A stretch of DNA of 64,000 bases. Origin: a virus. The notes below the pieces were generated by a model that saw only the letters and a program-made list of their open reading frames with translations, was not told where the DNA came from and made no database searches. The number at the start of each line of letters is the position of its first letter. Within the stretch, counting starts at the first letter, position 1. The translations under genes were made by a program, and so were the position numbers. The stretch spans positions 32,001-96,000 of the IMG/VR virus record IMGVR_UViG_3300020394_000003. The stretch is one strand, 5' to 3'. This document shows positions 1 through 64,000 of the stretch, one piece after another.

Positions 1-36
1 GTATAGATGTACAGTTTTGGAGTGATTCTGTAACTG

Positions 37-1389
37 ATGAAAAAGAAAAATTATATTCTCGATACAAGCGTTTATTTAACAAACGCAAGAGCAATTTACG
101 ACTTTGGAAGAAATGACATTATTATACCTTTAAAGGTATTAGAAGAAGTCGACAAACATAAAAAAAGACAAGACGGTGTTGGCTCACAAGCACGTCAATT
201 TATTCGAATCTTAGATGCACTGAGAGAAAAAGGTTCATTAAGTAAAGGCGTCCGAATTGATACTGGAAAAGGGCTAGTCAAAGTATATGATCGTGGCGCC
301 ACAGATGCCTCACTCTTGCCTCCTGACCTAGATCCTAGTGTACCTGACCACATCATCATCGCAACAGCCCTAACAGTAGCTGAACAAGATTCTAGTCGTA
401 AGAGTATTATGGTCTCGCGTGATATTAACATGCGTGTTATCTGCGATTCAATTGGATTAACAGCAGAAGACTACAATGCAGCAAAAGCTGTTGACGATTT
501 AGAAAAACTATATTCTGGATTTGATACTTACCTAGTCGATGATCAAACAATTGATAGGTTCTACTCAGGAGAAGATGTTTTTGTAGAAGAGGATGCACAA
601 GCTCCAGAAAACAAATTCCAACCTAATCAGTATTTATTGTTAGTTTCGAATGCTAACGATAAAAAGACCGCACTAGCAAGATTTATGAATCACAACACAG
701 CATTAAGAAAGGTTGTGCATGATAAACTGCCATCTTGGGGAATTCAATCTAGAAACAAAGAACAGGCATTTGCAATTGATCTTTTAATGGACCCGACGGT
801 AGAGGTTGTTTCTTTAATTGGAAAAGCCGGCTCTGGAAAAACTCTGTGCGCTATTGCTGCTGGAATGGAACAGACACTAGGAACCAGCCTTAAAGCAGGC
901 AAAAATAGTTTATATTCTAGAATGATTGTATCTAGACCAATTATGCCAATGGGTAGAGATATTGGTTTTCTTCCCGGCACAATGGAAGAAAAGATGCATC
1001 CATGGCTAATGCCAATTCAAGACAATCTTCAATTTCTCATGGGAAATGATAAGACCATGCTAGAGCAATACACTGAAAAGGGCTTGATTGAGATTGAAGC
1101 ACTAACTTATATTAGAGGGCGATCAATTTCTAATGCGTATATAATTATTGATGAGGCGCAGAACTTGACTGCGCATGAAATTAAAACAATTATTACTCGC
1201 GCCGGCGAGGGCACCAAGATCGTCTTAACAGGAGATATTGAACAGATTGATAATGCTTACACTGACGAAACGTCAAATGGCTTAGCCTATGCTATTGAAA
1301 AGTTTAAGTATTATGAAGTTTCGGGCCATATTACACTGCAAAAGGGAGAGCGCTCTAGAGTTGCCACGCTAGCTGCTAAGATTCTATAA
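37..1389 (+). CDS. phoH: PIN-domain/PhoH-family ATPase (PhoH2/YlaK-like)
   Basis: N-terminal PIN motifs (ILDTSV, LEEVD, PDHIII, VSRDINMR). C-terminal PhoH: GKAGSGKT Walker A, IGFLPG, YIRGRS, IIDEAQN, TGDIEQID. Confidence 0.93.
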   Translation: MKKKNYILDTSVYLTNARAIYDFGRNDIIIPLKVLEEVDKHKKRQDGVGSQARQFIRILDALREKGSLSKGVRIDTGKGLVKVYDRGATDASLLPPDLDPSVPDHIIIATALTVAEQDSSRKSIMVSRDINMRVICDSIGLTAEDYNAAKAVDDLEKLYSGFDTYLVDDQTIDRFYSGEDVFVEEDAQAPENKFQPNQYLLLVSNANDKKTALARFMNHNTALRKVVHDKLPSWGIQSRNKEQAFAIDLLMDPTVEVVSLIGKAGSGKTLCAIAAGMEQTLGTSLKAGKNSLYSRMIVSRPIMPMGRDIGFLPGTMEEKMHPWLMPIQDNLQFLMGNDKTMLEQYTEKGLIEIEALTYIRGRSISNAYIIIDEAQNLTAHEIKTIITRAGEGTKIVLTGDIEQIDNAYTDETSNGLAYAIEKFKYYEVSGHITLQKGERSRVATLAAKIL

Positions 1390-1404
1390 GGCAGGAATAG
1401 AACA

Positions 1405-1902
1405 TTGGAAATCAAAGTAGCTTTTTATAGAGGCAAAGGAAGTTGGAAAAATAGATTAATTCGATGGTGGACAAAAAGCCCATACAGTCACGCAGAACTG
1501 GTAATGCCAGATGATATTACATGGGTGAGTATTTCACCATTTCTCACCGCTACAGTTTCTGCACGCTCAAAATACGAAATAAAAAATTTAAACGATTGGG
1601 ACTTTATTAGTTTTCAGCTAAGCTGGAGAGAACCAGTCAGAGATTATCAAATTAAGCAACTCAATAATTTTATAGACGACACAAGTGGAGCTAAATACGA
1701 TTGGACAGGAATGATTTTATCACAAATATTTCCTTATCTAATAAAGCATAGAGATCGATGGTATTGTTCCGAATGGATTGCTCATGCACTTGTAAAAGCT
1801 AGAGTAGTAAGTTGGGAAAAGCTGCAGATTTACAGAACACCAAATTTGTCACCCGGCAAACTTTATGAAATATTGAAAGATTATAAACCAAATTATCAAT
1901 AA
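1405..1902 (+). CDS. Permuted papain-like NlpC/P60 (YaeF/YiiX-type) amidase/acyltransferase
   Basis: His precedes Cys: SPYSHAELV ... GAKYDWTG ... WYCSEWIAHAL. TTG start after an AGGA element. Confidence 0.72.
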   Translation: MEIKVAFYRGKGSWKNRLIRWWTKSPYSHAELVMPDDITWVSISPFLTATVSARSKYEIKNLNDWDFISFQLSWREPVRDYQIKQLNNFIDDTSGAKYDWTGMILSQIFPYLIKHRDRWYCSEWIAHALVKARVVSWEKLQIYRTPNLSPGKLYEILKDYKPNYQ

Positions 1903-1928
1903 CATTTAAATAAAAAGTAAATTTTTAA

Positions 1929-1956
1929 TTGACACTGGGTTATAATATGTTATACT
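1929..1956 (+). promoter_or_regulatory. Sigma70-type promoter
   Basis: TTGACA (1929-1934), 16-nt spacer, TGt-TATACT extended -10 (1948-1956), AT-rich upstream tract. AGGAG at 1962-1966 precedes ATG 1974. Confidence 0.7.
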
Positions 1957-1973
1957 TTAATAGGAGTAAAAAT

Positions 1974-3351: not shown

Positions 3352-4119
3352 ATGAAGCCTCACATTTCTTTTAGTGAACTTAAAGATTGGAACACTTGCC
3401 CCTTCTATCACAAGCTTAAGCATGTTGAAGGACTCAAGGGTTTCGTTGGAAACGAATATACAGCTTTCGGCACTGCAATTCATACTATTTGCGAAAACAA
3501 GCTGTTACAAAAACAGTCCGATGAACAGTTATTCCTGTCAGAATTTGAAAAACAAATTAAAATCCTAGAAGATGATAGTGTAGAACTAAGGTCCGAGTTG
3601 GTAAATACTCTTCGTGGACAAGCAGCTAAAATTATTCCCCTAATTCAGCCTGCACTAGAGAAATATTTTAACGAGGGATATGAGGTTTTAGAAACCGAAG
3701 AACAACTAATGGTTCAGATTCCTGAACAGGATAAAAAATTTAAAGGGTTTATTGATGCAGTTTTTAGAACGCCAGATGGTAAAATACATATCGTGGATTG
3801 GAAATCCTGTTCTTGGGGATGGGACGCTCGTAAGCGTTCTGATCCTATGGTTGTATATCAGCTTGTCCTCTACAAGCATTTTTACGCGCTAAAGCATAAT
3901 ATTGATCCAAAACAGATCGAGACACACTTTGCACTACTAAAAAGAACAGCAAAAAACAACAATGTAGAATTTTTTCGAGTTACATCTGGCCCCAAAAGAG
4001 TAGACAATGCACTAAAACTTTTGAAAAATGCATTGTATAATATTGCTAGTAAAAGATATATGAAAAATAAATTGTCATGCACAAGGTGTGATTTTCACAA
4101 AACACACCATTGTCCTTGA
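3352..4119 (+). CDS. Cas4/RecB-like PD-(D/E)xK exonuclease
   Basis: ISFSEL..W.TCP, GTAIH, GFIDAV, IVDWKS, QLVLY, and C-terminal CxxC..C (CTRCDFHKTHHC), consistent with a four-Cys Fe-S site. Confidence 0.85.
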   Translation: MKPHISFSELKDWNTCPFYHKLKHVEGLKGFVGNEYTAFGTAIHTICENKLLQKQSDEQLFLSEFEKQIKILEDDSVELRSELVNTLRGQAAKIIPLIQPALEKYFNEGYEVLETEEQLMVQIPEQDKKFKGFIDAVFRTPDGKIHIVDWKSCSWGWDARKRSDPMVVYQLVLYKHFYALKHNIDPKQIETHFALLKRTAKNNNVEFFRVTSGPKRVDNALKLLKNALYNIASKRYMKNKLSCTRCDFHKTHHCP

Positions 4120-4133: not shown

Positions 4134-5411
4134 TTGAAATTAAAAACTGATAAAAAAACTATTGTAACACTGTCGGACCATCCACTAAGTCCCTCTGGAG
4201 TTGGCACGCAGACAAAATATGTAATGGAAGCATTGCTGCAAACAGGCAAATATAGGATCATATCTTTTGGCGGAGCTATTAAGCACTCTGATTATACTCC
4301 CAAGATGGTTGAGCCATACGGAGAAGATTGGATAATCCACCCAGTAGATGGATATGGAAATCAAGAAATGATTCGTTCTGTGTTAAGAACAGAGCGTCCT
4401 GATATTTTATGGTTTATGACAGATCCTAGATTTTGGCCATGGCTGTGGGAAATGGAAGATGAAATTAGATCGGTATGTCCAATGGTTTACTATCACGTCT
4501 GGGACAACTACCCTTACCCAGACTTTAATGCAAAATGGTATAACTCTACAGATGTAATTGCTTGTATCTCAAAGTTAACACATGACATTGTTCAAACGGT
4601 AGCACCAGATGTAGAATCTCATTATTTACCACACGCGGTACAATCTCAAATTTTTAAGCCACTTGACTCAAACGATGTTAAGGAATTTTCAAAGGCACTT
4701 TTAAATGATGGAGATAAGCTAGAGGATAAGGTAACTTTCTTTTGGAACAACAGGAACGCTCGTCGCAAACAGAGCGGTTCTTTGATTTATTGGTTTAACG
4801 ATTTTCTAGATAGGGTTGGTAGAGATAAGGCAAGATTGATTATGCACACTGAGCCAAGAGATCCGAATGGACAAGATTTAATTGCTATTCTAGAAAACTT
4901 AAATTTAACTAATGGAGAAATTTATCTTTCTACAAACAAGCTTCCTGCGGAATCTCTGGCGTTGATGTATAACATGGCAGATGTAACTGTGAACATCTCT
5001 GATGCCGAAGGGTTTGGACTAGCAACACTAGAATCATTATCTTGTGGCACGCCAATTATCGTGACAATGACTGGCGGTTTGCAAGAGCAAGTAACTGATG
5101 GCGAAAGCTGGTTTGGAATTGGCTTGGAACCGACTTCAAAATCAATCATTGGTTCACAACAGGTACCTTATATCTACGAAGATCGTCTTTCACAAGAACT
5201 AGTCGTCGGAGCACTAGAAGAAATGTTTAATAAAACCGCGGAAGAAAGATTGCAAATGGGCCTTGCAGGTCGAAATCATGTTTTGGTAAATTATGGCTTT
5301 GAATCTTTTTGTAAAAGCTGGGTTGAATTAATGGACAATGTAGTGGAAAATTATGGATCATGGAACGAGAGAAAGAATTACAAAAATTGGTATTTTGCGG
5401 AGGTAGCATAA
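4134..5411 (+). CDS. GT4-family (GT-B) glycosyltransferase
   Basis: SGVGTQ N-terminus; NRNARRK; SDAEGFGLATLESLSCGTP (E-x7-E motif). Confidence 0.9.
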   Translation: MKLKTDKKTIVTLSDHPLSPSGVGTQTKYVMEALLQTGKYRIISFGGAIKHSDYTPKMVEPYGEDWIIHPVDGYGNQEMIRSVLRTERPDILWFMTDPRFWPWLWEMEDEIRSVCPMVYYHVWDNYPYPDFNAKWYNSTDVIACISKLTHDIVQTVAPDVESHYLPHAVQSQIFKPLDSNDVKEFSKALLNDGDKLEDKVTFFWNNRNARRKQSGSLIYWFNDFLDRVGRDKARLIMHTEPRDPNGQDLIAILENLNLTNGEIYLSTNKLPAESLALMYNMADVTVNISDAEGFGLATLESLSCGTPIIVTMTGGLQEQVTDGESWFGIGLEPTSKSIIGSQQVPYIYEDRLSQELVVGALEEMFNKTAEERLQMGLAGRNHVLVNYGFESFCKSWVELMDNVVENYGSWNERKNYKNWYFAEVA

Positions 5412-6731
5412 ATGAGTACGCAAAAAAAGAAAGTTTTAATTAGAGGCCCACTACTCACCAGATCAGGATATGGCGAGCAAGCTAGATTCGCATATAGAGC
5501 ACTAAAATCTAGGCCTGATCTATTTGATGTATATTTGGCTCCAACCAATTGGGGGCAGACTGGATGGATTAGCGACGACAATGATGAGCGCAGAGAGATG
5601 GACAGTGTAATCAGAAACACTACAACCCATGCTCAACAGTGTCAGCAGCAAGGTGTCTTAGCATTTGATGCGTCTATTCAAGTAACCATTCCACAAGAAT
5701 GGCAAAGAATTACACCAAAAAATATTGGATATACAGCAGGCACAGAAACAACCCTTATTTCACACAAATGGGTTGAGTCATGTCAAAATGTAGACAGGAT
5801 TATTGCAGTATCTGAGCACACTAAAGCAGCATTTGAAAATACTGAGTACGAAGGCAGAGATTCGGCCGGAAATACAATCTCAGCTAGGTGTACTACGCCA
5901 ATTGATGTTGTAGGATTCCCAACCAAACAGTTAGAACCAGTCGAGCTAGACTTCAAGCCTGAAACAAAATTTAATTTCTTAGTGGTTGCTCAGTGGTCTG
6001 ACCGTAAGAATTTGCCCGAAACCCTTCAAGGTTTTATGCGAGAATTTAATGATAATGAAGATGTTGGTCTGATTATTAAAACTAGTCTAGCTAAGAACTC
6101 TTACGTGGATAGGATTTATACTGAGGCTAGGTTAAAGCAATATCTTAAAAACTATGATAAAGCACCTTGGAATGGAAAGCCTAGAAAATGCAAATTGTAT
6201 TTACTTCATGGAAATATGTCCGATGAAGAGATGGCTGGACTCTACAGGCACCCTAACGTTAATGCCTTTATCAATCTTGCCCATGGTGAGGGCTTCGGGC
6301 TTCCTATTTTTGAAGCTGCCCAAGCTGGACTACCAATTGTTGCACCCAACTGGGGGGGTATAAAGGATTATATGAATGCGTATGTCACAACTAAGAGAGG
6401 CGCCGGCAAGAAAGCTCGTAAATCGCATGGCCGCATGCGTTTTCTGGGACAAAAGGTAGACTTTAGTGTCAAACCAATTCAAAAAGAAGCAGTATGGGAT
6501 GGAGTGCTGATTCCTGAGTCTAGCTGGTGTTTCCCACATGAAAAAAGTTTTATGCGCGCCATGAGAAAAATTTACAAGTCATATGATTTGGCTCTAAGCG
6601 ATGCTAAAAAATTAAAAGCTCACGTCGAAAAAGAATTTTCAGAAGAGATTCAACAAAATAAATTTGTAGAGTCAGTCCTAGAGACACTTGAGGCGTCTTC
6701 TCCACAATCTACTTCGGTTATTACTTTATGA
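5412..6731 (+). CDS. GT4-family glycosyltransferase
   Basis: SGYGEQAR; WSDRKN; HGEGFGLPIFEAAQAGLP. Confidence 0.9.
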   Translation: MSTQKKKVLIRGPLLTRSGYGEQARFAYRALKSRPDLFDVYLAPTNWGQTGWISDDNDERREMDSVIRNTTTHAQQCQQQGVLAFDASIQVTIPQEWQRITPKNIGYTAGTETTLISHKWVESCQNVDRIIAVSEHTKAAFENTEYEGRDSAGNTISARCTTPIDVVGFPTKQLEPVELDFKPETKFNFLVVAQWSDRKNLPETLQGFMREFNDNEDVGLIIKTSLAKNSYVDRIYTEARLKQYLKNYDKAPWNGKPRKCKLYLLHGNMSDEEMAGLYRHPNVNAFINLAHGEGFGLPIFEAAQAGLPIVAPNWGGIKDYMNAYVTTKRGAGKKARKSHGRMRFLGQKVDFSVKPIQKEAVWDGVLIPESSWCFPHEKSFMRAMRKIYKSYDLALSDAKKLKAHVEKEFSEEIQQNKFVESVLETLEASSPQSTSVITL

Positions 6732-7987
6732 CAAAAAAGATATTATATCAAGGCCAGCTAGGTGATCCTAGCGGATACGCCGTTGCTGGTCGCGGCTATT
6801 TGCGTTCTATGTATGACTACATTCAAGAAAAAAAATTAGATATTGATTTAAAAGTACTTTCTATTAATGCGGATGAGCAGAGTGCTTTAACACAAGAAGA
6901 AGCTGAATTTCTCAATATGCTTTCTTTTGACAGCAACGAAGAGATAGATGCTTGGACTGAGGCCGAGGACTTTCATTACATATTCCATCATCCTCCTGTT
7001 TATGCTTGGAAAATAGACGCAACTAAGTTTTTTGCATCGAAATCAGCGACCACAACCTGTGTTACGGTGTGGGAGACAGATGCAATGCCACCGGTATGGA
7101 ATGATATCCTTAAAGCATTTGAAGTAGACAGAATCGTGGTCCCGTGCCAGTGGAACAAAGATTCTTTTGAAGCTAGTTTAGAGAAATTTGACAATTCGAT
7201 GCCTGTAAAAATGGTGCCTCATTTAATTAATGACGATTTTGTCGGCTCTGCGGAAATTGAACCACTACCTCAAGAGCTTTTGTCCCCTGACCACTTTAAC
7301 GTCTTAACAGTAGGGCAGTGGACCGACAGAAAAGCCCTGATGAATGTCGTCAAAGCATATCTAATGGAATTTAAAGATAACGAAGATTGCTCTTTAGTTG
7401 TTAAAACGTATGGAAATATTCAAGATTCTAGACCTGAGTATCAACAGCAGCAACAACAAATGATGGCTAATGAAATTACTCTTTTAAAAAGATCAATCTT
7501 GAACGACAGTCTATCCAAAACTCCTAGCTGCAAAATTCATCTTCTTTATGGCTTGTTTCCAAAAAGTCAAATGAATTATCTATACAGGGAGAGCGATCTG
7601 TTTGCGCTTTTTAGCCGCGCAGAAGGATTTGGTTTGCCAATTGCTGAATCTCTAGTCCACGAAACTCCTGTAATTGTACATGATAAGGGCGGACATGTAG
7701 GCTTTGTAGATCCTAAAAACAACTATATTGTAAACAGTTATCTAACGCCTGCCCACTGCAAAATCTTTCCATTTGTATATTCGTGTGACAGTAACTGGTT
7801 TGAGACAGACTATATTTCAGCAAGAAAGCAATTGCGATCCGCCTATAATGAATGGAAACACGAGCCTGAAGCATATGCCCAACGAGGCCCAAATGCAAAA
7901 GAATATATGCTTGAAGTAACTGGTGATAGTTTAAAAATTGGTAAAGAGCTAGTTGAATTTGTATTAAGTGAAGATGAAGAAGACTAG
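6728..7987 (+). CDS. GT4-family glycosyltransferase
   Basis: SGYAVAGR; VWETD; WTDRKA; RAEGFGLPIAESL. Confidence 0.88.
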   Translation: MTKKILYQGQLGDPSGYAVAGRGYLRSMYDYIQEKKLDIDLKVLSINADEQSALTQEEAEFLNMLSFDSNEEIDAWTEAEDFHYIFHHPPVYAWKIDATKFFASKSATTTCVTVWETDAMPPVWNDILKAFEVDRIVVPCQWNKDSFEASLEKFDNSMPVKMVPHLINDDFVGSAEIEPLPQELLSPDHFNVLTVGQWTDRKALMNVVKAYLMEFKDNEDCSLVVKTYGNIQDSRPEYQQQQQQMMANEITLLKRSILNDSLSKTPSCKIHLLYGLFPKSQMNYLYRESDLFALFSRAEGFGLPIAESLVHETPVIVHDKGGHVGFVDPKNNYIVNSYLTPAHCKIFPFVYSCDSNWFETDYISARKQLRSAYNEWKHEPEAYAQRGPNAKEYMLEVTGDSLKIGKELVEFVLSEDEED

Positions 7988-8744
7988 ACAATTAAAACGA
8001 GAGTTGAGGCGATTAAAGACGTATGATGAAAGAATCGCCTTTTTAAAAGATACATACGCAAATGAACGTTTGTTTATACTCGCATCTGGTCCGTCGTTAG
8101 GTCACGTCGACAAGCAAGAATTGAAGAAAAAAATGTCAAACTCTTTGACGTTTTCAGTTAAACAGGCATATTTGGAGTATGAGAAAGAGACTGATTTTCA
8201 CTTCATAAACGACTGTAACTTACCAATGATAAATGGATACGCGGGGTATCGTTACGGGGTCAAGTCTGGGCCCATAGTAATAGCCTCCAGTGGCTACACA
8301 GAATCCTATGCAAAAACAAGGTTTGCTCCCCAACAACAGTGGGATATATTTTGTAGAGTTTTGGATCCACTAGTATATCCAAAAAGTAACCTTGGGCGCC
8401 TCTGTGAAAATAATAATTTTGATGAAGGTCTTTTTGATAAAAGAGTTGATAGGCCTTGTGGTCCAAGTATCACCCTAGAAACCGTTATTTATATGGCAGT
8501 TCATGTAGGTATAAAAAATATATATGCAATTGGGTGGGATAGTGGCGACAAGGTAGGTGAGCATTTTTATAAATCCAAGACCCATTTAACAAGTAATCGA
8601 AATTTTGAATATGAAATGGTACAAAAAGGCTCAGGACCGTTGTATAATTGGTTGAGAGATAAAAATGTTAATTTGCACCTAGTAAGTAAGGTTAGTGCAC
8701 TTAGTGAAGAAATTCCAAGAATAGAGTTAAAGGATATAAAATGA
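7968..8744 (+). CDS. DUF115/Maf/GT42-like protein, putative nonulosonic acid transferase
   Basis: FILASGPSL ... YMAVHVGIKNIYAIGWD ... EHFY matches the Cst-II/Maf pattern; directly upstream of neuB. Confidence 0.65.
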   Translation: MKMKKTRQLKRELRRLKTYDERIAFLKDTYANERLFILASGPSLGHVDKQELKKKMSNSLTFSVKQAYLEYEKETDFHFINDCNLPMINGYAGYRYGVKSGPIVIASSGYTESYAKTRFAPQQQWDIFCRVLDPLVYPKSNLGRLCENNNFDEGLFDKRVDRPCGPSITLETVIYMAVHVGIKNIYAIGWDSGDKVGEHFYKSKTHLTSNRNFEYEMVQKGSGPLYNWLRDKNVNLHLVSKVSALSEEIPRIELKDIK

Positions 8745-9571
8745 AAAAAACATATATTATCGCAGAAATCGGGATTAACCATAATGGCTCACTAGCTGTG
8801 GCCAAAAAACTAATTGATATTGCAGCGGTAGCAGGATGTGATGCTGTTAAATTTCAAAAACGAAATCCAGATGTTTGCGTTCCAGAACACCAAAAACAAG
8901 TTATGCGTGAAACCCCATGGGGCACCATGACCTATCTTGAATACAAGTATCGTGTTGAATTTGGAAAAGAAGAATACGACGAAATCGATCAATATTGTCG
9001 TGATAAAGGTATTGCTTGGTCCGCATCACCATGGGATATGGATAGTCTAGAGTTCTTGAGCCAATATGATTTACCTTTTATTAAGATGCCATCTGCAATG
9101 ATTACAAATGAAGAGTTAATGAGAGGCTGCGCACGCACAGGAAAGAAAGTAATTTTTTCAGCAGGAATGTCTACACTTGAAGAGACTGATCAAGCAGTTG
9201 AATGGATGCGCGAAGAAGGAGCAGAGTTTGCACTATTGCACTGCAACTCAACTTACCCAGCCCCTATCGAAGACTTAAACTTACAGTGCATTAAGACTTT
9301 ACAAGATCGATATGAGTGTGAAGTTGGCTACAGTGGCCATGAGTTTCGTCTTGGAACAACAGTCGCTAGTGTGTATTTAGGTGCTACGATCCTTGAGCGT
9401 CACATCACATTAGACCGTACCATGTGGGGGTCTGACCACTTAGCATCTGTAGAGCCACAAGGTCTCATTAAGCTTGTAAAAGGTGTTAGAGAGCTTGAGA
9501 CTGCCTTCGGCGATGGTGTAAAGCGGGTCACAGAAGGTGAAATTAAAGTTAGAAAGAAGTTGAGAGGTTAA
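8741..9571 (+). CDS. neuB: NeuB-family nonulosonic acid synthase (short form, no C-terminal SAF domain)
   Basis: IIAEIGINHNGS, DAVKFQKR, LLHCNSTYP, VGYSGHE, LERHITLDR, GSDH; 276 aa. Confidence 0.95.
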   Translation: MKKTYIIAEIGINHNGSLAVAKKLIDIAAVAGCDAVKFQKRNPDVCVPEHQKQVMRETPWGTMTYLEYKYRVEFGKEEYDEIDQYCRDKGIAWSASPWDMDSLEFLSQYDLPFIKMPSAMITNEELMRGCARTGKKVIFSAGMSTLEETDQAVEWMREEGAEFALLHCNSTYPAPIEDLNLQCIKTLQDRYECEVGYSGHEFRLGTTVASVYLGATILERHITLDRTMWGSDHLASVEPQGLIKLVKGVRELETAFGDGVKRVTEGEIKVRKKLRG

Positions 9572-9572
9572 A

Positions 9573-10862
9573 ATGGATTGGACCGTAAAAGATAGATCAG
9601 TAAAAGAAAAATCACCATCACCGAAGGGCCATCTCCGCGAAGCCGTCGGGCAAAAAAAATGGAATCACTCGGCGAGGGACATCCCTGTAGATAAGTTGGG
9701 TGTTTCAATGGCCAATGGTATAGAGGATGATCATGATTTAAAATACAGAAACATTGACATTAACAATGCTTTACAAGAAGCTCAAGCGTGGGGTGATGGA
9801 AATCGTCTATATGGAAAGATCTGGCACAAGCACACACGGCAAGTTTTAACAAATCTTTTTTCCTCTGGCGAAGCCGGCCATGGTCACTTACAGACGATGG
9901 TAAGACAGTACATAAGAAGGCACCCATCAGCGGTTCATGAAAATATCTGGTTTGACCAGTTGCATCAAAAAATATTTAGCAACGCTCAAACATATTGCTC
10001 GGGCCTAGATCCTATTGAACATAGCTTTTGTTCACCTCGACAAAGTTTTGCAAATCAAACTTGGAACTCAATTGCATCAGAAATGGGCAGAATGATAGAA
10101 AATATGGTAGTTGCCTATAACGCGAAAGGTCAGGTACCTAGTGCTGATGGTGTTACTTCTGACGATATTAATGAAGGCCGTTGTTATGGAGACTTAGTAT
10201 TTCCTGATTTAAGAATTGGTCTATGTCCTGCGGTTACTGGGTTGGCTAATCAAGATAGTGTTTTGATTATCGGTGGAGGGCCATCGACTAATAATATTGA
10301 TTTTTCACAGTTTCAAGATATACCTGTATGGACAATGAATAATTATTATAAGAATCCTTTGTTTGATCAATTTAACAACATTCAGGTTGCCTCTTTTTTA
10401 GATGAGGTTGATGTGTTTTACAATGATCCACTATGGGAGTATGTAAACGATAGAGATACTATCGTACTGCAGGAGATTACAGACTGGGGAACTGAACGAT
10501 TGTCTTATGTCAAAGAAGCAGCGAATTATTCAAGCTACTTTCATACTAGATATAGAAGCAAGCTCGGTATTGGACCTCGCTTGATGATTACTGCAATTAT
10601 TCTGGGGATTAGAAATATTTATTTTTGTGGTTTTGACGGCTACAATACTGAAGATGTTTCCAATAATCATTCATTTGAGTTAGGAAAAGACCTTCCAAAT
10701 TGGATTAAAAACTCTGATCCGGGCACACAAGAGAGACAATATGTGATGCTTTTCGACTATTTGTTAAATGATTTAAAATTGTCTCGGAGTTTTAAATTAC
10801 ATGACCTTTCAGCAGGACAGCCCACATTACAATATGAATTTTTAAGACAGATAATCAGATGA
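9573..10862 (+). CDS. Unknown N-terminal domain plus Cst-II/GT42-like sialyltransferase domain
   Basis: C-terminal half VLIIGGGPSTNNIDFS..VWTMNNYY ... AIILGIRNIYFCGFDGY..HSF parallels Cst-II (IIAGNGPS..IDYS..FRCNQFY ... ALGYKEIYLSGIDFY). Lies between neuB and neuA. Confidence 0.65.
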   Translation: MDWTVKDRSVKEKSPSPKGHLREAVGQKKWNHSARDIPVDKLGVSMANGIEDDHDLKYRNIDINNALQEAQAWGDGNRLYGKIWHKHTRQVLTNLFSSGEAGHGHLQTMVRQYIRRHPSAVHENIWFDQLHQKIFSNAQTYCSGLDPIEHSFCSPRQSFANQTWNSIASEMGRMIENMVVAYNAKGQVPSADGVTSDDINEGRCYGDLVFPDLRIGLCPAVTGLANQDSVLIIGGGPSTNNIDFSQFQDIPVWTMNNYYKNPLFDQFNNIQVASFLDEVDVFYNDPLWEYVNDRDTIVLQEITDWGTERLSYVKEAANYSSYFHTRYRSKLGIGPRLMITAIILGIRNIYFCGFDGYNTEDVSNNHSFELGKDLPNWIKNSDPGTQERQYVMLFDYLLNDLKLSRSFKLHDLSAGQPTLQYEFLRQIIR

Positions 10863-11536
10863 AAAATGTAGAAGATATAGCCGTCGTAATCCAAGCAAGA
10901 TTAGGCTCACAAAGAGTCCCGCAAAAGATGATCAGATCTATTGCGGGAACTACTTTAACAGACATCGCGCTAGAAAAGATTAAAAAATGTACAAGTTTTC
11001 CACAAGAAAACTTTTATTTGTCCGTGCATGAACCTGAACTGCTTAAAATTGGCGAGAAACATAATGTTAATATTTATCGTCGAACAGAAAAATCAGCCAA
11101 GTCAGAAGGCACACCTATGACAGATATGTACGAATGGTGGGATAAATTACCTCATAAATATTGTGTGCTAGTAAATGCTTGTGCTCCGTTCCTAACTTCA
11201 AAAACAATCGACGCGTTTGTCAGAGCATACTCTTACACAGAATCAGATGGAATGTTTGGCGTAATTAGAAAAAAGAATTACTTTTGGAATTTTAACAAGG
11301 ATCTGATAACTCCATTAACGGAAGCAGTAATGAATACCAAGACAGTCGCACCGGTGTATGAAGCGGCACATTGCCTTTATGCCGGCCGCCTAGACAAAAT
11401 TGGAGAAGGGATATGGATGGGAGATTTTAATACTCCCGGTGATATTAAGTTGTTTCATATGGAAGAACAGGAAGTTTTTGATATTGATTATGAGTGGCAA
11501 TTTACAATGGCTGAAAGCTTGATGGAGACAAAGTGA
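10859..11536 (+). CDS. neuA: CMP-nonulosonate synthetase (acylneuraminate cytidylyltransferase)
   Basis: VIQARLGSQRVPQKMIR; NACAPFL; FDIDYEWQF..AE. Confidence 0.88.
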   Translation: MKNVEDIAVVIQARLGSQRVPQKMIRSIAGTTLTDIALEKIKKCTSFPQENFYLSVHEPELLKIGEKHNVNIYRRTEKSAKSEGTPMTDMYEWWDKLPHKYCVLVNACAPFLTSKTIDAFVRAYSYTESDGMFGVIRKKNYFWNFNKDLITPLTEAVMNTKTVAPVYEAAHCLYAGRLDKIGEGIWMGDFNTPGDIKLFHMEEQEVFDIDYEWQFTMAESLMETK

Positions 11537-12321
11537 CAAATTTGCCTCCTAGTAAAGAAGAAGTTAGAAAATTTATGGACACCATTGACCTACCGCCCAA
11601 GCCCCGCGGTAGAGGAATAATGGAGGTTTTATTAACAAAATATTATAATGACTTTCAGACAGTGTTAGATGTTGGTTCTGGAGGCGGTCATCACATTAGG
11701 ACCTTTAAGCACTTTGGCAAAGATACATTTGCATGCGATATGTCAGAACACAGGAACCCTGATTATCTAGGAAATTTTTTAGAAATTAGTTCTCAGATTC
11801 CAGATGGCCATTTCGATTGTGTATGGTGCAGCCATACTTTGGAGCATCAAATAAATGTTGGCGTGTTTTTAAAGGAACTGAAAAGAATTATCAGAGATGA
11901 TGGTATCCTAGCTTTGACTGTACCTCCAGCTAAGCATATGATTGTCCCGGGCCACTTATGCATCTGGAACGGTGGGCTGTTATTATACAACCTTGTCACA
12001 GTGGGCTTCGACTGCTCAGAGGCTATTGTGAGGGATCATAAACCGTCGGCTTACATTGACAGCAAAGGTCGTGAGTCAATTAAACCATATGACGTGTCTG
12101 TGCTAGTAAAAAAGAAAGACATCAATTGGAGTCCAAAAGTATTAGATGCACTACCTAGGGTAATTGAGTTTTCCGATGCAACAGTTCATGATGGAATCTT
12201 GTATATGAGTGGAAAGGGTATGATTAATATTAAGAAATTTTTTCCAAAAGATATCAAGTGGATCAGAAAAGGAAAACAGGGAGATATCCAGCTTGATGGA
12301 AGGGTGGGCAATATAGGTTGA
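11533..12321 (+). CDS. Class I SAM-dependent methyltransferase
   Basis: VLDVGSGGG; FDCVWCSHTLEH; L..DGILALTVP. Confidence 0.88.
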   Translation: MTNLPPSKEEVRKFMDTIDLPPKPRGRGIMEVLLTKYYNDFQTVLDVGSGGGHHIRTFKHFGKDTFACDMSEHRNPDYLGNFLEISSQIPDGHFDCVWCSHTLEHQINVGVFLKELKRIIRDDGILALTVPPAKHMIVPGHLCIWNGGLLLYNLVTVGFDCSEAIVRDHKPSAYIDSKGRESIKPYDVSVLVKKKDINWSPKVLDALPRVIEFSDATVHDGILYMSGKGMINIKKFFPKDIKWIRKGKQGDIQLDGRVGNIG

Positions 12322-12324
12322 GCG

Positions 12325-13134
12325 ATGAAAAAAAAGTTATGTTATATAATACCTTGTTTATATACGAAACAAAATGGGTTTCACATATTTAACTGCGTCA
12401 AATCTGTTAGAAAACAGTTTTCAAAAGTTGATATCTATGTGGTTGACAGCGGCTCATCTGACACTAGCTATCTTAATGTTTTAAAAAAGAAATATGACAT
12501 TATTCCTTTAGATGTGAAAAACAAAAACTTTCCTACTGGTGCCTTGTGGTATGTATACGAGTCAACAAAGGATCAATATGAAAATTACTTTTTACTACAT
12601 GATTCCACAATCATTAAGCAACGAGCTAGGATTGATGAAATTCTACAGGAAGATTACAAAGTGGCCCCAATAACAACATACGAAAAATGGAGTTGGCCAA
12701 AAAAAGACCGTTATGATGATAAATCAAGATCAAGCGCATGGCCCCGAAAGAAGTTTAGAGAAAATGAATTAGAATTTCCAAAAAATAAAAAATTTCTTTC
12801 TATTTTAGGGCCAATGTTTATGATATCGAAAGAGGTACTAGATGAAATTAGTAATACTACATTTTATAATATAAGGCCTAAAATCAAGTATCATTCAATA
12901 TGTATGGAAATTTTGTGGGCCTACACATTCCAGCAGCTTGGGTATAAAGAAAACATGCTTAAATATTCAATTATGCGACCAGAGCTTAAATCAGACGGTA
13001 GAAAAATATATGTTAAAGATAGCAGATATGGTGTGCCTGATCTAAATATCGATACTGAACAGCACAGATGCAAGACTCATGAAGAGCATGATTTTGATAA
13101 CACATTGCAAAAATTTTGGGCAACTAGGCAATAA
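12325..13134 (+). CDS. GT2-like (GT-A) glycosyltransferase
   Basis: YIIPC; IYVVDSGSSD; FLLHDS. Confidence 0.65.
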   Translation: MKKKLCYIIPCLYTKQNGFHIFNCVKSVRKQFSKVDIYVVDSGSSDTSYLNVLKKKYDIIPLDVKNKNFPTGALWYVYESTKDQYENYFLLHDSTIIKQRARIDEILQEDYKVAPITTYEKWSWPKKDRYDDKSRSSAWPRKKFRENELEFPKNKKFLSILGPMFMISKEVLDEISNTTFYNIRPKIKYHSICMEILWAYTFQQLGYKENMLKYSIMRPELKSDGRKIYVKDSRYGVPDLNIDTEQHRCKTHEEHDFDNTLQKFWATRQ

Positions 13135-13135
13135 G

Positions 13136-13753
13136 ATGAACAGTATAAGATTAGTAATTTTTGATTTAGATGGGGTAATTGTTGATGCGTGCGAATGGCA
13201 TCGAGTTGCACTAAATAAAGCACTAGCAGAAGTATGCGATTACACAATTTCAATGGAAGACCATTACACTACTTTTAATGGAATTCCAACAAAAGTAAAG
13301 CTGTCAAAATTAACGGAAATGGGCATAGTAAAACCTGATCAGCATGAAGAAATTTATGATCGAAAACAACAACTAACAGTTGAAACAATTAATTTATCTG
13401 CACCAAGAAGGCAAGAAAAGATTGATTTAATTAAGTATCTGCGTGAGCAAGGGTGTTATGTCGCGTGTTATACAAACAGTATAAGAGAGACAGCTACACT
13501 GATGCTTGACAAGACTGGTGTGCTAGAGCAGATGGATTATTTACTAACAAATCAAGACGTTGAAAACTCAAAACCACACCCGGAAGGGTATAACTTTTTA
13601 GTTGAAAAATTCAATTTAAAAAAGCATCAAGTGCTAATTATAGAAGATTCTCCAAAGGGTAAGCAGGCTGCATATGCATCTGGATGCAATGTATTAGAAG
13701 TAAAGGATCCCGATGAGGTAACGATTGACACATTAAGGGAGTATTTTGAATGA
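13136..13753 (+). CDS. HAD-family phosphatase (beta-PGM-like)
   Basis: IFDLDGVIVD; TNS; KPHPEGY; IEDSPKG. Start moved to the in-frame ATG just after the upstream stop. Confidence 0.88.
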   Translation: MNSIRLVIFDLDGVIVDACEWHRVALNKALAEVCDYTISMEDHYTTFNGIPTKVKLSKLTEMGIVKPDQHEEIYDRKQQLTVETINLSAPRRQEKIDLIKYLREQGCYVACYTNSIRETATLMLDKTGVLEQMDYLLTNQDVENSKPHPEGYNFLVEKFNLKKHQVLIIEDSPKGKQAAYASGCNVLEVKDPDEVTIDTLREYFE

Positions 13754-19021: not shown

Positions 19022-19362
19022 TGTATACAGAAGAAAGACCATGGGGAATGTTTGAAAACTTGTTAGAATCTGAATACTGCAAAGTAAAAAGAATAACAGT
19101 AAACCCCGGTCAACGTTTGAGTTACCAATATCACCACAAGCGCTCAGAAGTGTGGACAATTGTGCAGGGTAAAGCTCTTATCACTCTTGATGATATAACC
19201 ACAAGATACAAAGCTGGGGACACCATTACGATTCCTACTAGTATGAAACATAGGATCGAGAACGACACAGAAGAGGCTGTAATCTTTATTGAAGTACAAC
19301 ATGGTGAATATTTTGGAGAAGATGATATTGTGAGGATTAGTGATGACTACAACAGATCCTAG
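19021..19362 (+). CDS. Mannose-6-phosphate isomerase type II C-terminal cupin
   Basis: ERPWG; LSYQYHHKRSEVW; HRIEN; IEVQHGEYFGEDDIVRISDDY. Confidence 0.9.
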   Translation: MYTEERPWGMFENLLESEYCKVKRITVNPGQRLSYQYHHKRSEVWTIVQGKALITLDDITTRYKAGDTITIPTSMKHRIENDTEEAVIFIEVQHGEYFGEDDIVRISDDYNRS

Positions 19363-23057: not shown

Positions 23058-24541
23058 TGGCTGAAAAAGGTGATGATAGATATCTTCCCGGCACACTAAA
23101 TCCTAGTGCTATACAATCCCCGGGTGATTATAAAGAAACTGTTGGTCCATCAATGGACAACAACAACTTTTTTACAAAGTTTCACGAAACGATGCAAAAG
23201 GGCGCATCCCTTAATACCTTTAAGGGTGTTAACAGATACAAAGCAATGGTAATCAGTGAAGTCAAGACTACAAAATCTGGTGGATTTCTTGGTTTTGGTG
23301 GTAAAGAAAGGTATGAATTTAGAATCAGAATACCGGAGCTACACAGCGGTATTCAAGACCCATGTGCTCTTCCTCCCGATGGTGGCGGCGGCGCCAACTT
23401 TAACGACAAGGTAAAGAAACTAGTAGGTATGCACCCAATGGCCTATAGTGCTTCAGACAAAGAGGGCGGCGACGGAAATTTGCCAGAGCCAAAAATGGGG
23501 GATATTGTATGGGTTGAATTTGAAAAAGGCCCATCTGCTGGTAAAATGTCTGCGCCAATCTATGTTGGAAGATTCAGCAAAGGAAAGGGTACAAACAATA
23601 TCTCGGAAGTTTGTGACGGCCTAGCAGAATCTATGAATGCAGCAGGTAACCGAAGTACCGTAGGTGGTAATCATGCCAATGTCGGAGGATATGGAGGAGA
23701 TCCCTCCTCATGGCCCGTGAGCGACTCTTCTGAACATATTGAAGGTGAGGCCGCATCGGGCCTCCACGACGTAGCTAGAGCTTATTATGAAGAACTAGGG
23801 TATACTTGGTATGACGATCCATTCATGTTAAATCTTATGGGAATCAGAAATACAAACACTAGATCTAACAACTCTTTTGATGATAAGATTATTTGTATGT
23901 ATACTGATGATGCTGGTACACAGCATGTCTATGTCTGGCCCGGTACCACCCGTCCCGGCCGGCCAGCAATGATGGATGGTCGAACAGGTGGTATTGCTAT
24001 TATGACACCATCTGCCCCACAGTACCATGCAGACTTTCCTACTAGTCACGGCGCATATCCGGGCCGTACCGCATCGGCTGGCCAAAAAACATACTATAAA
24101 GGCGCCCCTTCAGATGGTAAGGTGCGAGGTAGGAACTCGGATAGCGGCACTGGTTTTGCTGGTGATGGACCTGACCCAGTTCAAGCTTATCGAGACACCA
24201 ATAACGACGATGTATTTGACTATGATCCAAATTCAATTAAAGGTTGTGCACAGTGTCAAATTCACGGTACCGGGCCTCACATGGGAGATGGAGTCGCTGC
24301 CAACGTTGGTGGTTTAAGAGCAGACGGCTCAGCTTGGGCATGGTCTGAAGGTTGTCAAGTTTGGGGTTCATGGGCAGATTATACCTTCTGGTTATCTTTG
24401 TGGTCGCAGCAAATTCAAAATGGTCGCGAGTACATTGATTATGTTCTGATTAGAGCAGAAGATTCTCCAGAGTTATGGGGCACCCAAACAGAATCAGGGG
24501 CACCATCCGACGAACCGCAAGCCGGTGATCCGATAGAATAA
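23057..24541 (+). CDS. gp5-like baseplate hub protein: OB-fold-like N-terminus plus putative cysteine (L,D-transpeptidase-like) cell-wall domain
   Basis: FRIRIPELH and PKMGDIVWVEFE...PIYVG (gp5/VgrG OB-like). C-terminal GIRN..FDD..TTRPG..YRD...IH...WSEGCQV. Confidence 0.55.
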   Translation: MAEKGDDRYLPGTLNPSAIQSPGDYKETVGPSMDNNNFFTKFHETMQKGASLNTFKGVNRYKAMVISEVKTTKSGGFLGFGGKERYEFRIRIPELHSGIQDPCALPPDGGGGANFNDKVKKLVGMHPMAYSASDKEGGDGNLPEPKMGDIVWVEFEKGPSAGKMSAPIYVGRFSKGKGTNNISEVCDGLAESMNAAGNRSTVGGNHANVGGYGGDPSSWPVSDSSEHIEGEAASGLHDVARAYYEELGYTWYDDPFMLNLMGIRNTNTRSNNSFDDKIICMYTDDAGTQHVYVWPGTTRPGRPAMMDGRTGGIAIMTPSAPQYHADFPTSHGAYPGRTASAGQKTYYKGAPSDGKVRGRNSDSGTGFAGDGPDPVQAYRDTNNDDVFDYDPNSIKGCAQCQIHGTGPHMGDGVAANVGGLRADGSAWAWSEGCQVWGSWADYTFWLSLWSQQIQNGREYIDYVLIRAEDSPELWGTQTESGAPSDEPQAGDPIE

Positions 24542-40000: not shown

Positions 40001-43000
40001 AGTATGGCTGGTTCAGCAACATTATTGATCAACAACACAGTGGAAAAGGAGACAGGTTCTTACCGCCAGAAAGTGGTGACAAAAATCCAATTGATGTAAA
40101 CTACATCTCTTCTGCCCGTCGTCAGTTACCAGAGGTTGTAAATACAAACGACGCTGTTCAGATTTTAAGACAAGATGATGATAAGTTTACTAGAGAACAC
40201 AGCATAGTACAGCACTATTATGCTATCGAAAAGAGCATGTACCAGACCATTTCTGAAGAAATGATTAATATGTTCGCATCAATTGTTGATTTTAATAACT
40301 TAATTGGTGAACCGGTAAACCGCTATCGACAAGAATATAAAGACCTAGGAAAGCTTAGGCAACTGTTCTTTGACAGAATTGGAAATACACCAAGTCTAGA
40401 TAAGTACGTTCAATTTTACAAATGGCTAGACTCAGCTGTCACCACTGTTATCCAAGAACTCATCCCAGCGTCAGCCGAAGTTGCTGCAGACCTACACAAT
40501 ATGGTCGAAAGTCATGTTCTTGAGAGAAATAAATACTGGACTAAGTTTCCTACGATTGAGTTCAAGCAAGATGATCCTGAAGCGGGCCTTCGCGGTGTCA
40601 TGGAGCTTACGTATGATTGGGAGCATGGCCATCATCCTGTAAATCAAAATCAGGCAAACAACGCTCTTTATTGGAAAGAGCGCGCAGAACGAGATGATTT
40701 CCCGCTGTCAGTGACAGCTTCCGTCGGCTCGCCATTCTTTCAATTAGATGGTAACCCAGTAGATGGTAACAAAAATACAATTCGTCGCACCCTAAACACT
40801 CACAGGGAGGCTAAGAAAAACTCTCTAGCAAGACCTGATGGTACTCTGTATGGAGGCCGTGAATACTCATTAAGAAAATTTACAAAGCCATACAAATTAG
40901 AAATGGACATGCCACTAGAAATAAAATCTGGCATCAATTTTGAAAAAAATAAAAATGTAGATATTGCGAAAAACCTTTTGCATCCAAACGCGCCGCTTAC
41001 AATAAGCTCATCGACTAACGGTCCACTAGCCGATTTACCAACAAATGTAATGTTTGTAGATGGTGACAATATTGATTCTTTTAAAGATGTTAGTGACGAT
41101 TTAGAACTGAACAAGGGCAAAAGAAAATATACTGGTACAGTTATTATGGGTCGAGAAAAAGAATTCGATCAGCACAATAATGAGACCTACGCAGAAACTA
41201 CATACGCAAAAGTACTACCAGCAACAATCGTATCCAGTTCGGTAGTAACAGGCTACAACAAGGTGTTCGCTGGTGTTGATGCTCCCGGGTTTGTTACCGG
41301 CGCTTCGATCACAAACATTCATCATGATTTTTATGGACAAGATCGAGAGATTCCGATGCAAGGTCCGTTCACAGAAAAATATGTAGGAGGACATCAATCT
41401 AGACACGTTCGCCTAAACCCCGGAACAGACGATTTCCAGAATAGGCCCGAGGCGTGGAGAATCCTAGTAGGAAAAGTCGTTCCCGGCTGCAGCCGTCAAG
41501 ATCCCGGTGCCTTTGGATTTGTGGGGCAAGATTACCCATATCCAGTTATTGGTAAAGAACCCATAGCTGCCACTGGAATAATTAATTGCCATATTGGTTC
41601 AGACTTGCCATTTTGCGATCCAGCAGATGGAGATACCATTACTATCAGTGATGGCAGGACCACATCAGTATTCGAATTTGATACTAACGGCTCCGTAGTG
41701 GCTGGAAATGTAACACTTGATATATCAGGAGTCAGTGGAGGTGCAAATAGTCGATCAAGACAGTATGCACAAATTCTTGCAAATGCTATCAATGCAGTAG
41801 CAGACTTACAAGTTCAAGCCACTGATAACGAACACACAATAACACTAGTTAACACATTATATGGTGCACCCTCTTCGAAAGCTTCGTTTTCTCTGGGAGC
41901 CAAGGGAAACGCTGCAATTGTAAAAACCCCCAAAAACAGCGGCGCAGGAATTGGCAGGTCTCACAGTGAAACAACTGTGTGGCGAGTAACTGGTATGGCC
42001 GGCGGACAAAACCCGGTTATTTTAAATCAAAAGCCGCCAAGAGCGGTCCGGTACCGAGAAGAATTGATCAAGCGACCAGTTAACTTTAAGAACATTAGGC
42101 AAACAACTGCCTCTGTCGACGTGGTTGTTGAGGCTTCAAGACAGCACGGCCCAATCGGGAACTATACACACAACTATGAAATTGTCCAATCTGCAGGTAG
42201 AACAACAAATGATCTAGATTTTAGAAAAACAAGCAGACTGGATCATCAAGATACAGCGCTAGCAAAAGGTGGTCAAGATATTGATGCTGTAACGTACAGC
42301 AGAAAACTTTTACAAAGAGAAATTACAAATGAAGACGAGCCGCAACATGCAGGCGGGAGCCTAGGAGATCCTAACTTCTGGCACAGGAATGCCCCGGGCG
42401 TAACGCACAGCACAAGAGACCTTTCGAAAAATCCTAGAAGAGGAAAAAACAAGACTGTAATTGTATCAAGATTTAGCGCACCGGGTGGCTACGAAAGCAT
42501 GTCTCGCGGATTTTTAGACCCAGCGCATGAAGAGCATTCACCATATGATGTAGTTACGTTCCGCAATAGAGCAGTTAGGGGAGAATTCCAATACATTGCT
42601 ACTAGCGGATCAGTACCAGAAAACTTTAAAGATACACTCTATCAAGACGGCTTGGATGCAACGACATTTAGAGTAGTAGATATTCACGGTGAACCGTGGG
42701 GCCTAAAGAGTCATCTTACTAGATACACTGCACCATATGGCAGAGATTCAGTGCTATCTCATGGCCCTCTTCAAGGTACCGAAGTGCTTGAAAATGAAAC
42801 TTTTTACCCGGGCTTTCATAAAGTACATCGCAATGGAGCTACTGCAAACGACTTTACTACAGATATTGATCGAGTAACACACACAACATACTACGGAGTT
42901 CCCATGAACCGCGGTATAGTGATGGCTTCCGATGTTGCAGGTTTCACTCCTTCTGCACCGGGCGGTACTAAAAACAGCTCGCGAGCCTTAAGATATGTCA

Positions 43001-61728: not shown

Positions 61729-61737
61729 GAGGAGGAA

Positions 61738-62148: not shown

Positions 62149-62687
62149 TGATACTGGGACTTGACATCTCTACTAGTATCACTGGGGCTACCATACTTGA
62201 CAAAGATGGTAAAATTATCTATAATGATGCATGGGATACAAGAAAATTTAAAACAATGTTTGCTAAAGCTGAGTATGTTAAGGAAAAGTTATTAGATGCT
62301 TTTGAGAACAGCATTGACGATAGCAGTGTGATCAAACATATCTACATCGAGCAAAACCTGCAATCATTTAGAAGCGGTTTTTCGTCAGCAAAAACTTTAT
62401 CTACTCTTTCTAAATTTAATGGCATTGTGTCGTGGATGTGCTACGACTTACTAGAAATAACACCAGAGTATGTAGCAGCGCCAACGGCAAGGAAGCTAGC
62501 CGGCATAAAGATACCTCGCGGAACAAAAGCCAAAGAGGTGGTTCTTAAGTATGTTGAACAAGAAGGTTTACTTGAGATTGAGTATACGAAACACGGAAAT
62601 CCAAAACCACAATTTTATGATCGGGCAGATTCTATAATAATTGCAAAAGCAGGGCACTACTTATTGCAGGAGAAAGATGATGAATAA
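62148..62687 (+). CDS. ruvC: RuvC-like Holliday junction resolvase
   Basis: ILGLDISTSITG; IYIEQ; DRADSIIIA. Confidence 0.8.
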   Translation: MILGLDISTSITGATILDKDGKIIYNDAWDTRKFKTMFAKAEYVKEKLLDAFENSIDDSSVIKHIYIEQNLQSFRSGFSSAKTLSTLSKFNGIVSWMCYDLLEITPEYVAAPTARKLAGIKIPRGTKAKEVVLKYVEQEGLLEIEYTKHGNPKPQFYDRADSIIIAKAGHYLLQEKDDE

Positions 62688-63561
62688 ACATATGGTCGCA
62701 GAGTGGCGAAGCTTTCTTAAAGAAAACAAGCCCGCAGCAGAAGAAGTATCTGATGAAGTAATAAGATTAATTTTTTCTGATGAAATGGATAAAATCTTAC
62801 AAGATCAAAAACTAGATGAGAGTCTGTCCAGTCGCGCTAAATCTATTGCAAAGAAGTACGGCATTCCTCTTGGAATAGCCATGGGTGTTGTTACAGGTGC
62901 AATTAGTGGCAAGCAGTTTGCTGATATGCAAAACGCCCGTAATGCAGAAGTTTCCGCTCAAGCAGATGCGCCCCAGCCCGGAGACTATTCATATCACCTA
63001 AATAAAAGCCGTCTACCCCCCGGCTATTCAGATCTCAGTAATCGAGAGGCAATTGAGAAAGCATGGCAAGACATTGAAAGACTGCCCAGAAAAAGAGCAC
63101 CGGTGTCTGGAACTGCCCCCACGTTAGTTGGCGGAGAAATAAAGGTTTTAAAATTTGGGTATATCCCCACGCAAGAAATAAATCCAGACACAGTACTGCC
63201 TATGTCAGCCATGACTGCTGAAAATTATAGAAATATGCTAGAAGCTAGATTAGCAAAATCTCCCGATGAGTTGATCTATCTTAAGGGAATGATCTTTGGT
63301 GACACTGGAAAATGGGCTAGTGGTACTGGTGAAGAAGTGTTTAGGGTAGAGGGAAACTATGCTATATTGCCTCCCGAATGGTCTATAGCTCATGAAGTGT
63401 ACGCAAGCGCAGTAGAAGAAAGACTGTTTGAAATGGTCAAGTACGTAAGAGAAAGTCCAGAGATGGCTAGCGAAGTTATTTTTAAGCAACTTAATGTAGA
63501 AAATGAAGAACAGTTTAATGAATTTGTTAGTGATCAGCTGTTTAAAATCGGCCGACAGTAA
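62680..63561 (+). CDS. Hypothetical protein, possible internal virion protein
   Basis: AGGAG at 62668-62672 supports ATG 62677/62680. N-terminus MNKHMVAEWRSFLKE; Gly-rich hydrophobic segment GIPLGIAMGVVTGAISG. Confidence 0.6.
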   Translation: MNKHMVAEWRSFLKENKPAAEEVSDEVIRLIFSDEMDKILQDQKLDESLSSRAKSIAKKYGIPLGIAMGVVTGAISGKQFADMQNARNAEVSAQADAPQPGDYSYHLNKSRLPPGYSDLSNREAIEKAWQDIERLPRKRAPVSGTAPTLVGGEIKVLKFGYIPTQEINPDTVLPMSAMTAENYRNMLEARLAKSPDELIYLKGMIFGDTGKWASGTGEEVFRVEGNYAILPPEWSIAHEVYASAVEERLFEMVKYVRESPEMASEVIFKQLNVENEEQFNEFVSDQLFKIGRQ

Positions 63562-63569
63562 AAAAATAG

Positions 63570-63598
63570 TTGACAACGCCGACGACTAGTGGTATATT
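63570..63598 (+). promoter_or_regulatory. Sigma70-type promoter
   Basis: A-tract, TTGACA (63570-63575), 17-nt spacer, TGg-TATATT (63590-63598). AGGAGG at 63607-63612 precedes ATG 63617. Confidence 0.8.
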
Positions 63599-63616
63599 GG
63601 TACTATAGGAGGACTC

Positions 63617-63787
63617 ATGGAGTCAATTAAGCTTGTTTTTGCTGGTTTTTTTATGGGGTTCGCAATCAGCTGTATTCTCGCATCAGTAGCTCGCGCCCCT
63701 AGTGTAACACATATCGACAAGGAGAAGCTACAAGACAAAGAAATCGAAGCTGTCATCTTGCTAGAGATTCCTGAAACTAATGAATGA
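63617..63787 (+). CDS. 56-aa membrane/signal-anchored small protein (not in the ORF track)
   Basis: MESIKLVFAGFFMGFAISCILASVARAPSVTHIDKEKLQDKEIEAVILLEIPETNE*, with a strong RBS and promoter. Confidence 0.7.
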   Translation: MESIKLVFAGFFMGFAISCILASVARAPSVTHIDKEKLQDKEIEAVILLEIPETNE

Positions 63788-64000
63788 GCATGAAAAATAT
63801 AAGATTGTAACAAAAGTTTTGGGTCACTCTTACAGATCTGGCACAGAACATTTGTACCATTGTCCGTATTGTAAGCATCACAAGAAAAAACTATCAGTTA
63901 ATTTTGAGCGTGATGTCTACAAGTGTTGGATATGTGATGCCCGCGGCCGCACCATTCGCCGTATTGTTAGACGTTTTGGAAATTTGACTTTATTAAGGGA
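63780..64000 (+). CDS. DNA primase N-terminal zinc-binding domain (runs off the window; not in the ORF track)
   Basis: MNEHEKYKIV...YHCPYCKHHKKKLSVNFERDVYKCWICDARG has two CxxC pairs; the frame is open to the window end. Confidence 0.75.
   Translation, partial: MNEHEKYKIVTKVLGHSYRSGTEHLYHCPYCKHHKKKLSVNFERDVYKCWICDARGRTIRRIVRRFGNLTLLR

Follow-up and report, generated by a model that had tools for sequence, protein, structure and literature searches.

CCWGG (CCAGG or CCTGG) is the site of EcoRII, BstNI and Dcm, and is scarce in the coliphages T7 and T3. In the cyanophages of Anabaena and Nostoc, host restriction sites are likewise counter-selected, and CGATCG and CCTNAGG are among the sites known from cyanobacterial enzymes. 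Here, we describe the elimination of CCWGG, together with nine other words, from a marine phage contig. The stretch analysed (hereinafter the window) comprises 64,000 nucleotides, namely bases 32001–96000 (G000:C1) of the 161,704-bp IMG/VR viral contig IMGVR_UViG_3300020394_000003, labelled G000. The likeness to T7 and T3 lies in the counter-selection of the same word in a virulent phage with unmodified DNA, as G000 appears to be; however, T7 keeps a few sites, which go uncut since EcoRII needs two, whereas G000, which is marine and unrelated to T7, has none left. With the Anabaena/Nostoc cyanophages G000 shares the purging of multiple sites, which reflects a host equipped with numerous type II enzymes, and CGATCG and CCTNAGG are among the words purged in G000; however, nothing ties it to a cyanobacterial host and no psbA was found in it.

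A published parallel is a survey in which non-temperate double-stranded DNA phages avoided orthodox type II sites most strongly, with complete site elimination in about a tenth of the genomes (Rusinov 2018, PMC6286503). As in those cases, G000 eliminates palindromes resembling orthodox type II sites, several at once, by synonymous recoding, and no integrase was found. It differs in that the published cases are defined by a match of site to enzyme, whereas no host could be matched to G000; moreover, with a genome this large (~160–200 kb), zero occurrences of a pentamer out of ~160 is extreme. The usage of CCWGG by Dcm and BstNI has itself been described (PMC10644984). The probable mechanism is a classical one that is already known, and the purge in G000 is real, extreme and specific.

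Absence of CCWGG

Neither CCAGG nor CCTGG occurs on either strand of the window, as against 59 sites expected from base composition, 66 from Markov models of order 1–2 and 56 from order 3 (Poisson probability of zero, ~1e-24). The absence extends to the whole contig, for which a maximum-order Markov model predicts 156 sites. A codon shuffle of 300 synonymous replicates, in which every protein and the codon usage of each gene are preserved, predicts 168.8±10.0 (shuffle minimum 142; z=-16.9), and the Poisson probability of zero for the whole genome falls to ~1e-68 to 1e-73. The initial annotation, made by reading the letters of the window, had claimed complete avoidance, and both kinds of null model bear this out. 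CCAGG/CCTGG is the sole zero-count pentamer in the window as well as in the whole contig; all 13 one-mismatch neighbour classes of CCWGG stand at ~0.8–2.0 of expectation, and CCSGG is roughly doubled (184 versus 90 expected) because it is the direct by-product of recoding. The depletion is specific to the recognition word CCWGG, with related words spared. In agreement with the earlier reading, GATC (616/642, observed/codon-shuffle), CCGG (373/297), GGCC (394/353) and GCGC (384/333) are freely used, and GAATTC is only mildly low (34/48).

It is vanishingly improbable that these zeros arose artificially, be it through chance, base composition, codon bias or the assembly: besides the Poisson values, not one of the codon-preserving shuffles fell below 142 sites, and the same purge recurs in independent contigs from other samples, with other relatives being normal.

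Recoding at the codon level

The codons of Pro-Gly dipeptides expose the purge most directly. All 112 such pairs in the genome are written CCC-GGN (76) or CCG-GGN (36), including the 47 in the window (30 CCC and 17 CCG), and CCA and CCT are never used, although together they make up 66% of all Pro codons and 71% of those ahead of codons that begin with G and have a second base other than G. The pattern first noticed in the window is thus exact across the contig, and the example strings quoted for it were recovered in place or at most 5 bases away (Table 1). The other two frames are equally clean. Of the 207 NCN codons ahead of TGG or AGG, none has C as its third base (background, 17%), and AGG never follows NCC; in the NNC-Gln-G context there are 63 CAA and 0 CAG codons, and in the NNC-Leu-G context CTG is absent. 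Since CCW is missing from Pro-Gly pairs and the remaining frames match it, the constraint targets the DNA word in all three codon frames, and not a codon or a dipeptide.

Synonymous changes account for almost the whole of the site removal: CCW-GGN turned into CCS-GGN; NCC-WGG turned into NCD-WGG or took another Arg codon; and NNC-CAG-G shifted to CAA and NNC-CTG-G to another Leu codon.

The initial annotation had also raised mutational erosion, whereby the inner C of CCWGG is methylated and lost through deamination of 5-methylcytosine (5mC) to T. Two observations lean this way, namely an excess of CTAGG/CCTAG (280 versus 164, 1.7-fold) and an over-use of NCT ahead of AGG (59/85). However, counts of the sister products CTTGG/CCAAG are not raised (285 versus 295), and ahead of TGG the T:A:G split at the third base of NCN codons equals the background, with no surplus of T. 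The rise of CTAGG/CCTAG is no larger than a general 1.65-fold excess of CTAG, and over 48 related loci that excess shows no correlation with the loss of CCWGG (rho=0.01). The main replacement, CCSGG (+94), exchanges W for S, which is beyond the reach of deamination. At aligned sites the relatives show a mixture of substitutions, a qualitative and noisy comparison given the ~67–70% DNA identity of purged/unpurged pairs, and erosion would not normally run to exactly 0 of ~160 sites. Lacking a C-to-T signature, erosion was rejected as the main cause, and we regard it as extremely unlikely.

The CTAG tetramer is over-represented in its own right in G000 (825 versus 507 under the Markov model; 793 versus 479 under the codon shuffle, z=+18), in contrast to bacteria, where CTAG is usually scarce. 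Only the T_A context lacks the enrichment, which both usable codon frames show; it is seen in GCTAGC, ACTAGT and CCTAGG and not in TCTAGA. As a footprint of deamination it was discarded, there being no link to CCWGG loss among the relatives.

Nine further purged palindromes

The initial annotation was right about the purge, but CCWGG is not the sole site affected. Nine more words have zero copies in G000, with 8–26 expected of each under the codon shuffle (z from -2.6 to -5.6): TCCGGA (26 expected), GAGCTC (21), GACGTC (20), CCTNAGG (19), CGATCG (19), CTCGAG (18), CGTACG (14), CACGTG (13) and CGCGCG (8). All nine are palindromes of 6–7 bp such as orthodox type II enzymes cut, and CCWGG is the largest of the ten purged words.

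These additional words bear on a methyl-dependent explanation, in which a Dcm-like host marks CCWGG and the next host cuts the 5mC-bearing DNA with a type IV (McrBC/Mrr-like) enzyme, such that a phage with no CCWGG escapes marking. The resulting purge would look identical, and no phage methylase was found. On the other hand, the nine other purged words are typical orthodox type II targets, so that one mechanism for all ten is simpler, and there is no positive evidence of Dcm-like hosts. We therefore consider this route unlikely.

Distribution of the purge among relatives

IMG/VR holds at least 147 related contigs. CCWGG counts were made for 48 related loci (minimum length, 12 kb) and for the full records of ten relatives (G001 onward), which include two complete genomes of ~203 kb with direct terminal repeats. 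The purge is patchy. CCWGG is absent from the complete 204-kb G001 (0/215, observed/expected) and from the 130.8-kb G002 (0/103; the record of locus L027), and nearly so from G003 (5/124), but it stands close to expectation in the complete 203-kb G004 (231/258) and in G005 (186/173). G006, G007 and G008 (the records of L007, L069 and L032) are intermediate, with 0/11 in some of their 10-kb bins next to others of normal density, a pattern that suggests either recombination of purged and unpurged lineages (mosaicism) or a recent change of selective regime.

A maximum-likelihood tree built from 50 rows of the baseplate wedge protein, which is encoded in the window, requires at least six changes between the purged and normal states, all forced by well-supported branches, or five under strict state definitions. 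For a single family, at least five switches indicate that restriction pressure, or the hosts themselves, turn over rapidly.

Other words show both constancy and change. GAGCTC, CTCGAG and CCTNAGG are missing family-wide (each of the eleven genomes has hardly any or no copies of GAGCTC, and almost every one the same for CTCGAG), and CCWGG and several others are lineage-specific. CAGCTG, GTCGAC and TTCGAA are missing from G002 and G003, and CCGCGG from G001; in G002 two tetramers are purged or depleted, namely GCGC (0/75) and ACGT (12/114). A stable core with a fast-changing periphery of purged words is what differing host restriction repertoires should produce. As a separate observation, a truncated C5 DNA methylase lies at the extreme contig end of G002.

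Protection, lifestyle and nuclease genes

A Pfam profile search of the 161.7-kb G000 contig, which took in a handful of families and leaves many ORFs (open reading frames) without annotation, recovered no C5, N4/N6 or Dam-class DNA methylase (PF00145, PF01555, PF02086), no TGT/DpdA (PF01702) and no ThyA-family hydroxymethylase (PF00303). A Dcm-like methylase elsewhere in the genome, which the initial annotation had considered, was not found across this ~89% complete contig. What G000 does carry is a generic S-adenosylmethionine (SAM) methyltransferase (Methyltransf_11) in its glycan island, as well as a dCMP deaminase and ThyX, whose presence points to canonical dTMP (deoxythymidine monophosphate). 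The DNA of G000 is thus probably unmodified, and the earlier suggestion that it is not fully shielded gains support as the probable state. No C5 or N4/N6 methylase was found in the complete relatives G001 (purged) and G004 (unpurged) either, so methylation is not the alternative strategy of G004. Tyrosine integrases were not found in G000, G001 or G004, other integrase types and repressors not having been searched for; this fits the rule that avoidance is strongest in non-temperate phages (Rusinov 2018, PMC6286503).

A different form of self-protection would have the phage carry a solitary CCWGG-cutting nuclease that shreds host DNA, the phage being safe through its own lack of sites. Such a gene could sit among the many unannotated ORFs of G000 or in the ~11% of the genome that is missing. 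However, no EcoRII-C match was found in G000, and the only Pfam nuclease seen in the window, of the PDDEXK_1 family, is kept in purged and unpurged relatives alike. No G000 gene is common to the purged G001, G002 and G003 yet absent from unpurged genomes, a comparison limited by incomplete genomes. Two genes are limited to G000, G001 and G002: one encodes a sugar nucleotidyltransferase and the other is a short ORF of the glycan island that has no annotation, neither being a nuclease. Such an enzyme would also leave the purging of ten different words unexplained, and we hold this account to be very unlikely.

Selective agent

We favor the classical explanation, in which a virulent phage whose DNA is unmodified avoids restriction sites, and assign it a probability of about 0.8. 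The unmodified phage DNA would be open to cutting by any type II restriction enzyme of the host; sustained selection by a CCWGG-specific endonuclease in the host population would have removed every CCWGG, and other enzymes would likewise have driven the loss of TCCGGA, GACGTC, GAGCTC, CCTNAGG, CGATCG, CTCGAG, CACGTG, CGTACG and CGCGCG. The initial annotation had proposed strong, site-specific selection; this is upheld, given that the constraint acts at the level of DNA in all three frames, and a host restriction system is its best explanation. A restriction endonuclease of the host is the inferred selective agent, and the total removal of sites suggests a single-site cutter (BstNI/MvaI/PspGI-like) rather than a two-site EcoRII-type enzyme.

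Several points weigh against restriction-site avoidance. The host search yielded neither an assignment nor a cognate CCWGG endonuclease, and metagenome-assembled genome (MAG) contigs with relatives carry the labels of more than 10 unrelated taxa, apparently through mis-binning. The contig is ~89% complete (CheckV), and a methylase or nuclease could sit in the absent part; few Pfam families were searched genome-wide, with many ORFs unannotated. Finally, sequence alone cannot tell ordinary from methyl-dependent restriction as the selective agent.

Genomic context

G000 is most of the genome of an uncultured, apparently virulent, marine myovirus-like phage. The contig is linear, has a G+C content of 41.7%, and holds 152 of its 161 ORFs on the + strand. 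Its features are collected in Table 1.

Table 1. Features of the G000 contig and recoded sites, in window coordinates unless a contig coordinate (G000:C1) is given
Feature	Position	Strand	Remark
PhoH-like ATPase gene	37-1389		holds the CCC-GGC example at 973..977
Recoded Pro-Gly, CCC-GGC	973..977	+	in PhoH-like gene
PDDEXK_1 nuclease gene	3352-4119		Pfam match
Glycan-synthesis island	4134-20973		
Cytidylyltransferase-like gene	10859-11536		holds the CCC-GGT example at 11435..11439
Recoded Pro-Gly, CCC-GGT	11435..11439	+	in cytidylyltransferase-like gene
SAM methyltransferase (Methyltransf_11)	11533-12321		in glycan island
494-aa ORF	23057-24541		holds the two Pro-Gly pairs at 23939..23958
Two Pro-Gly, both CCC-GGN, within 20 bases	23939..23958	+	in 494-aa ORF
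Giant ORF, 2523 aa	25620-33191		
Giant ORF, 4317 aa	37039-49992		Laminin_G_3 is the sole recognisable domain
CCCGG	41482..41486	+	in 4317-aa ORF
ORF 62641-63561	62641-63561		holds CCCGG at 63019..63023
CCCGG	63019..63023	+	in ORF 62641-63561
tRNA-Asn(GTT)	G000:C1:5578-5675		98 nt, over-long for a standard class I tRNA
tmRNA	G000:C1:27059-27390		one-piece, phage-encoded; unusual tag ANNNNHFEQRLAA
UvdE gene	G000:C1:147154-148092 (L211:11154-12092)		ultraviolet (UV)-damage endonuclease

The glycan-synthesis island encodes three GT4 glycosyltransferases, an MptE-like protein, NeuB, a cytidylyltransferase, the SAM methyltransferase and a HAD hydrolase, alongside a sugar nucleotidyltransferase, GT2-like proteins, a sulfotransferase and a PhyH dioxygenase. 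Of the two giant ORFs, the longer has a homologue, at the required coverage, in only one of the ten relatives (G006), and a megablast of this 13-kb ORF against GenBank phages gave no match.

Outside the window, G000 carries five tRNAs, a transfer-messenger RNA (tmRNA), UvdE, the dCMP deaminase and ThyX. UvdE is 84–86% identical in G002, G003 and G009, compared to 40–65% for the other genes of those relatives, and 81–93% identical to many proteins from marine metagenomes, Tara Oceans records among them; at E<=1e-20 the matches numbered 7999 proteins. It has the look of an auxiliary gene that is either very conserved or horizontally mobile.

Host search and implications

The closest cultured relatives, Microcystis phage Mel-JY01 and Flavobacterium phage immuto, reach no more than ~31% identity, in the baseplate wedge protein, and tblastn searches with PhoH and the baseplate wedge protein likewise found only distant cultured relatives (identity <=40%). 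A scan of GTDB genome contigs for relatives gave no host signal, with phage-like contigs filed under more than 10 unrelated taxa, and the host-prediction clue seen in the initial annotation could therefore not be turned into an assignment. The MAGs concerned are labelled Bacteriovoracaceae, Legionellales, Parvibaculum, Pelagibacter, Actinomycetes and Woesearchaeota, among others. The GTDB MAG contigs L081-L092 and L103 are phage contigs of this family, the Pelagibacter-labelled one being 116 kb long; these are probably phage DNA contaminating public MAGs through mis-binning. The UvdE homologue search gave no host clue, its matches bearing no organism names, and the tmRNA tag ANNNNHFEQRLAA is not diagnostic of a host.

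The purge profile itself predicts the restriction specificities carried by the host population. The ten-word profile could serve as a heritable barcode of the host restriction repertoire and thereby assign hosts to this abundant, uncultured ~200-kb marine family: it could be matched to marine methylomes or REBASE-type predictions for host proposals, and purged phages could be enriched from viromes by digestion. What G000 adds to a known mechanism is a ten-word purge profile, at least five gains or losses of the purge in one uncultured marine family, and a fingerprint for host finding in what is a widespread lineage of myovirus-like phages of ~160–200 kb.

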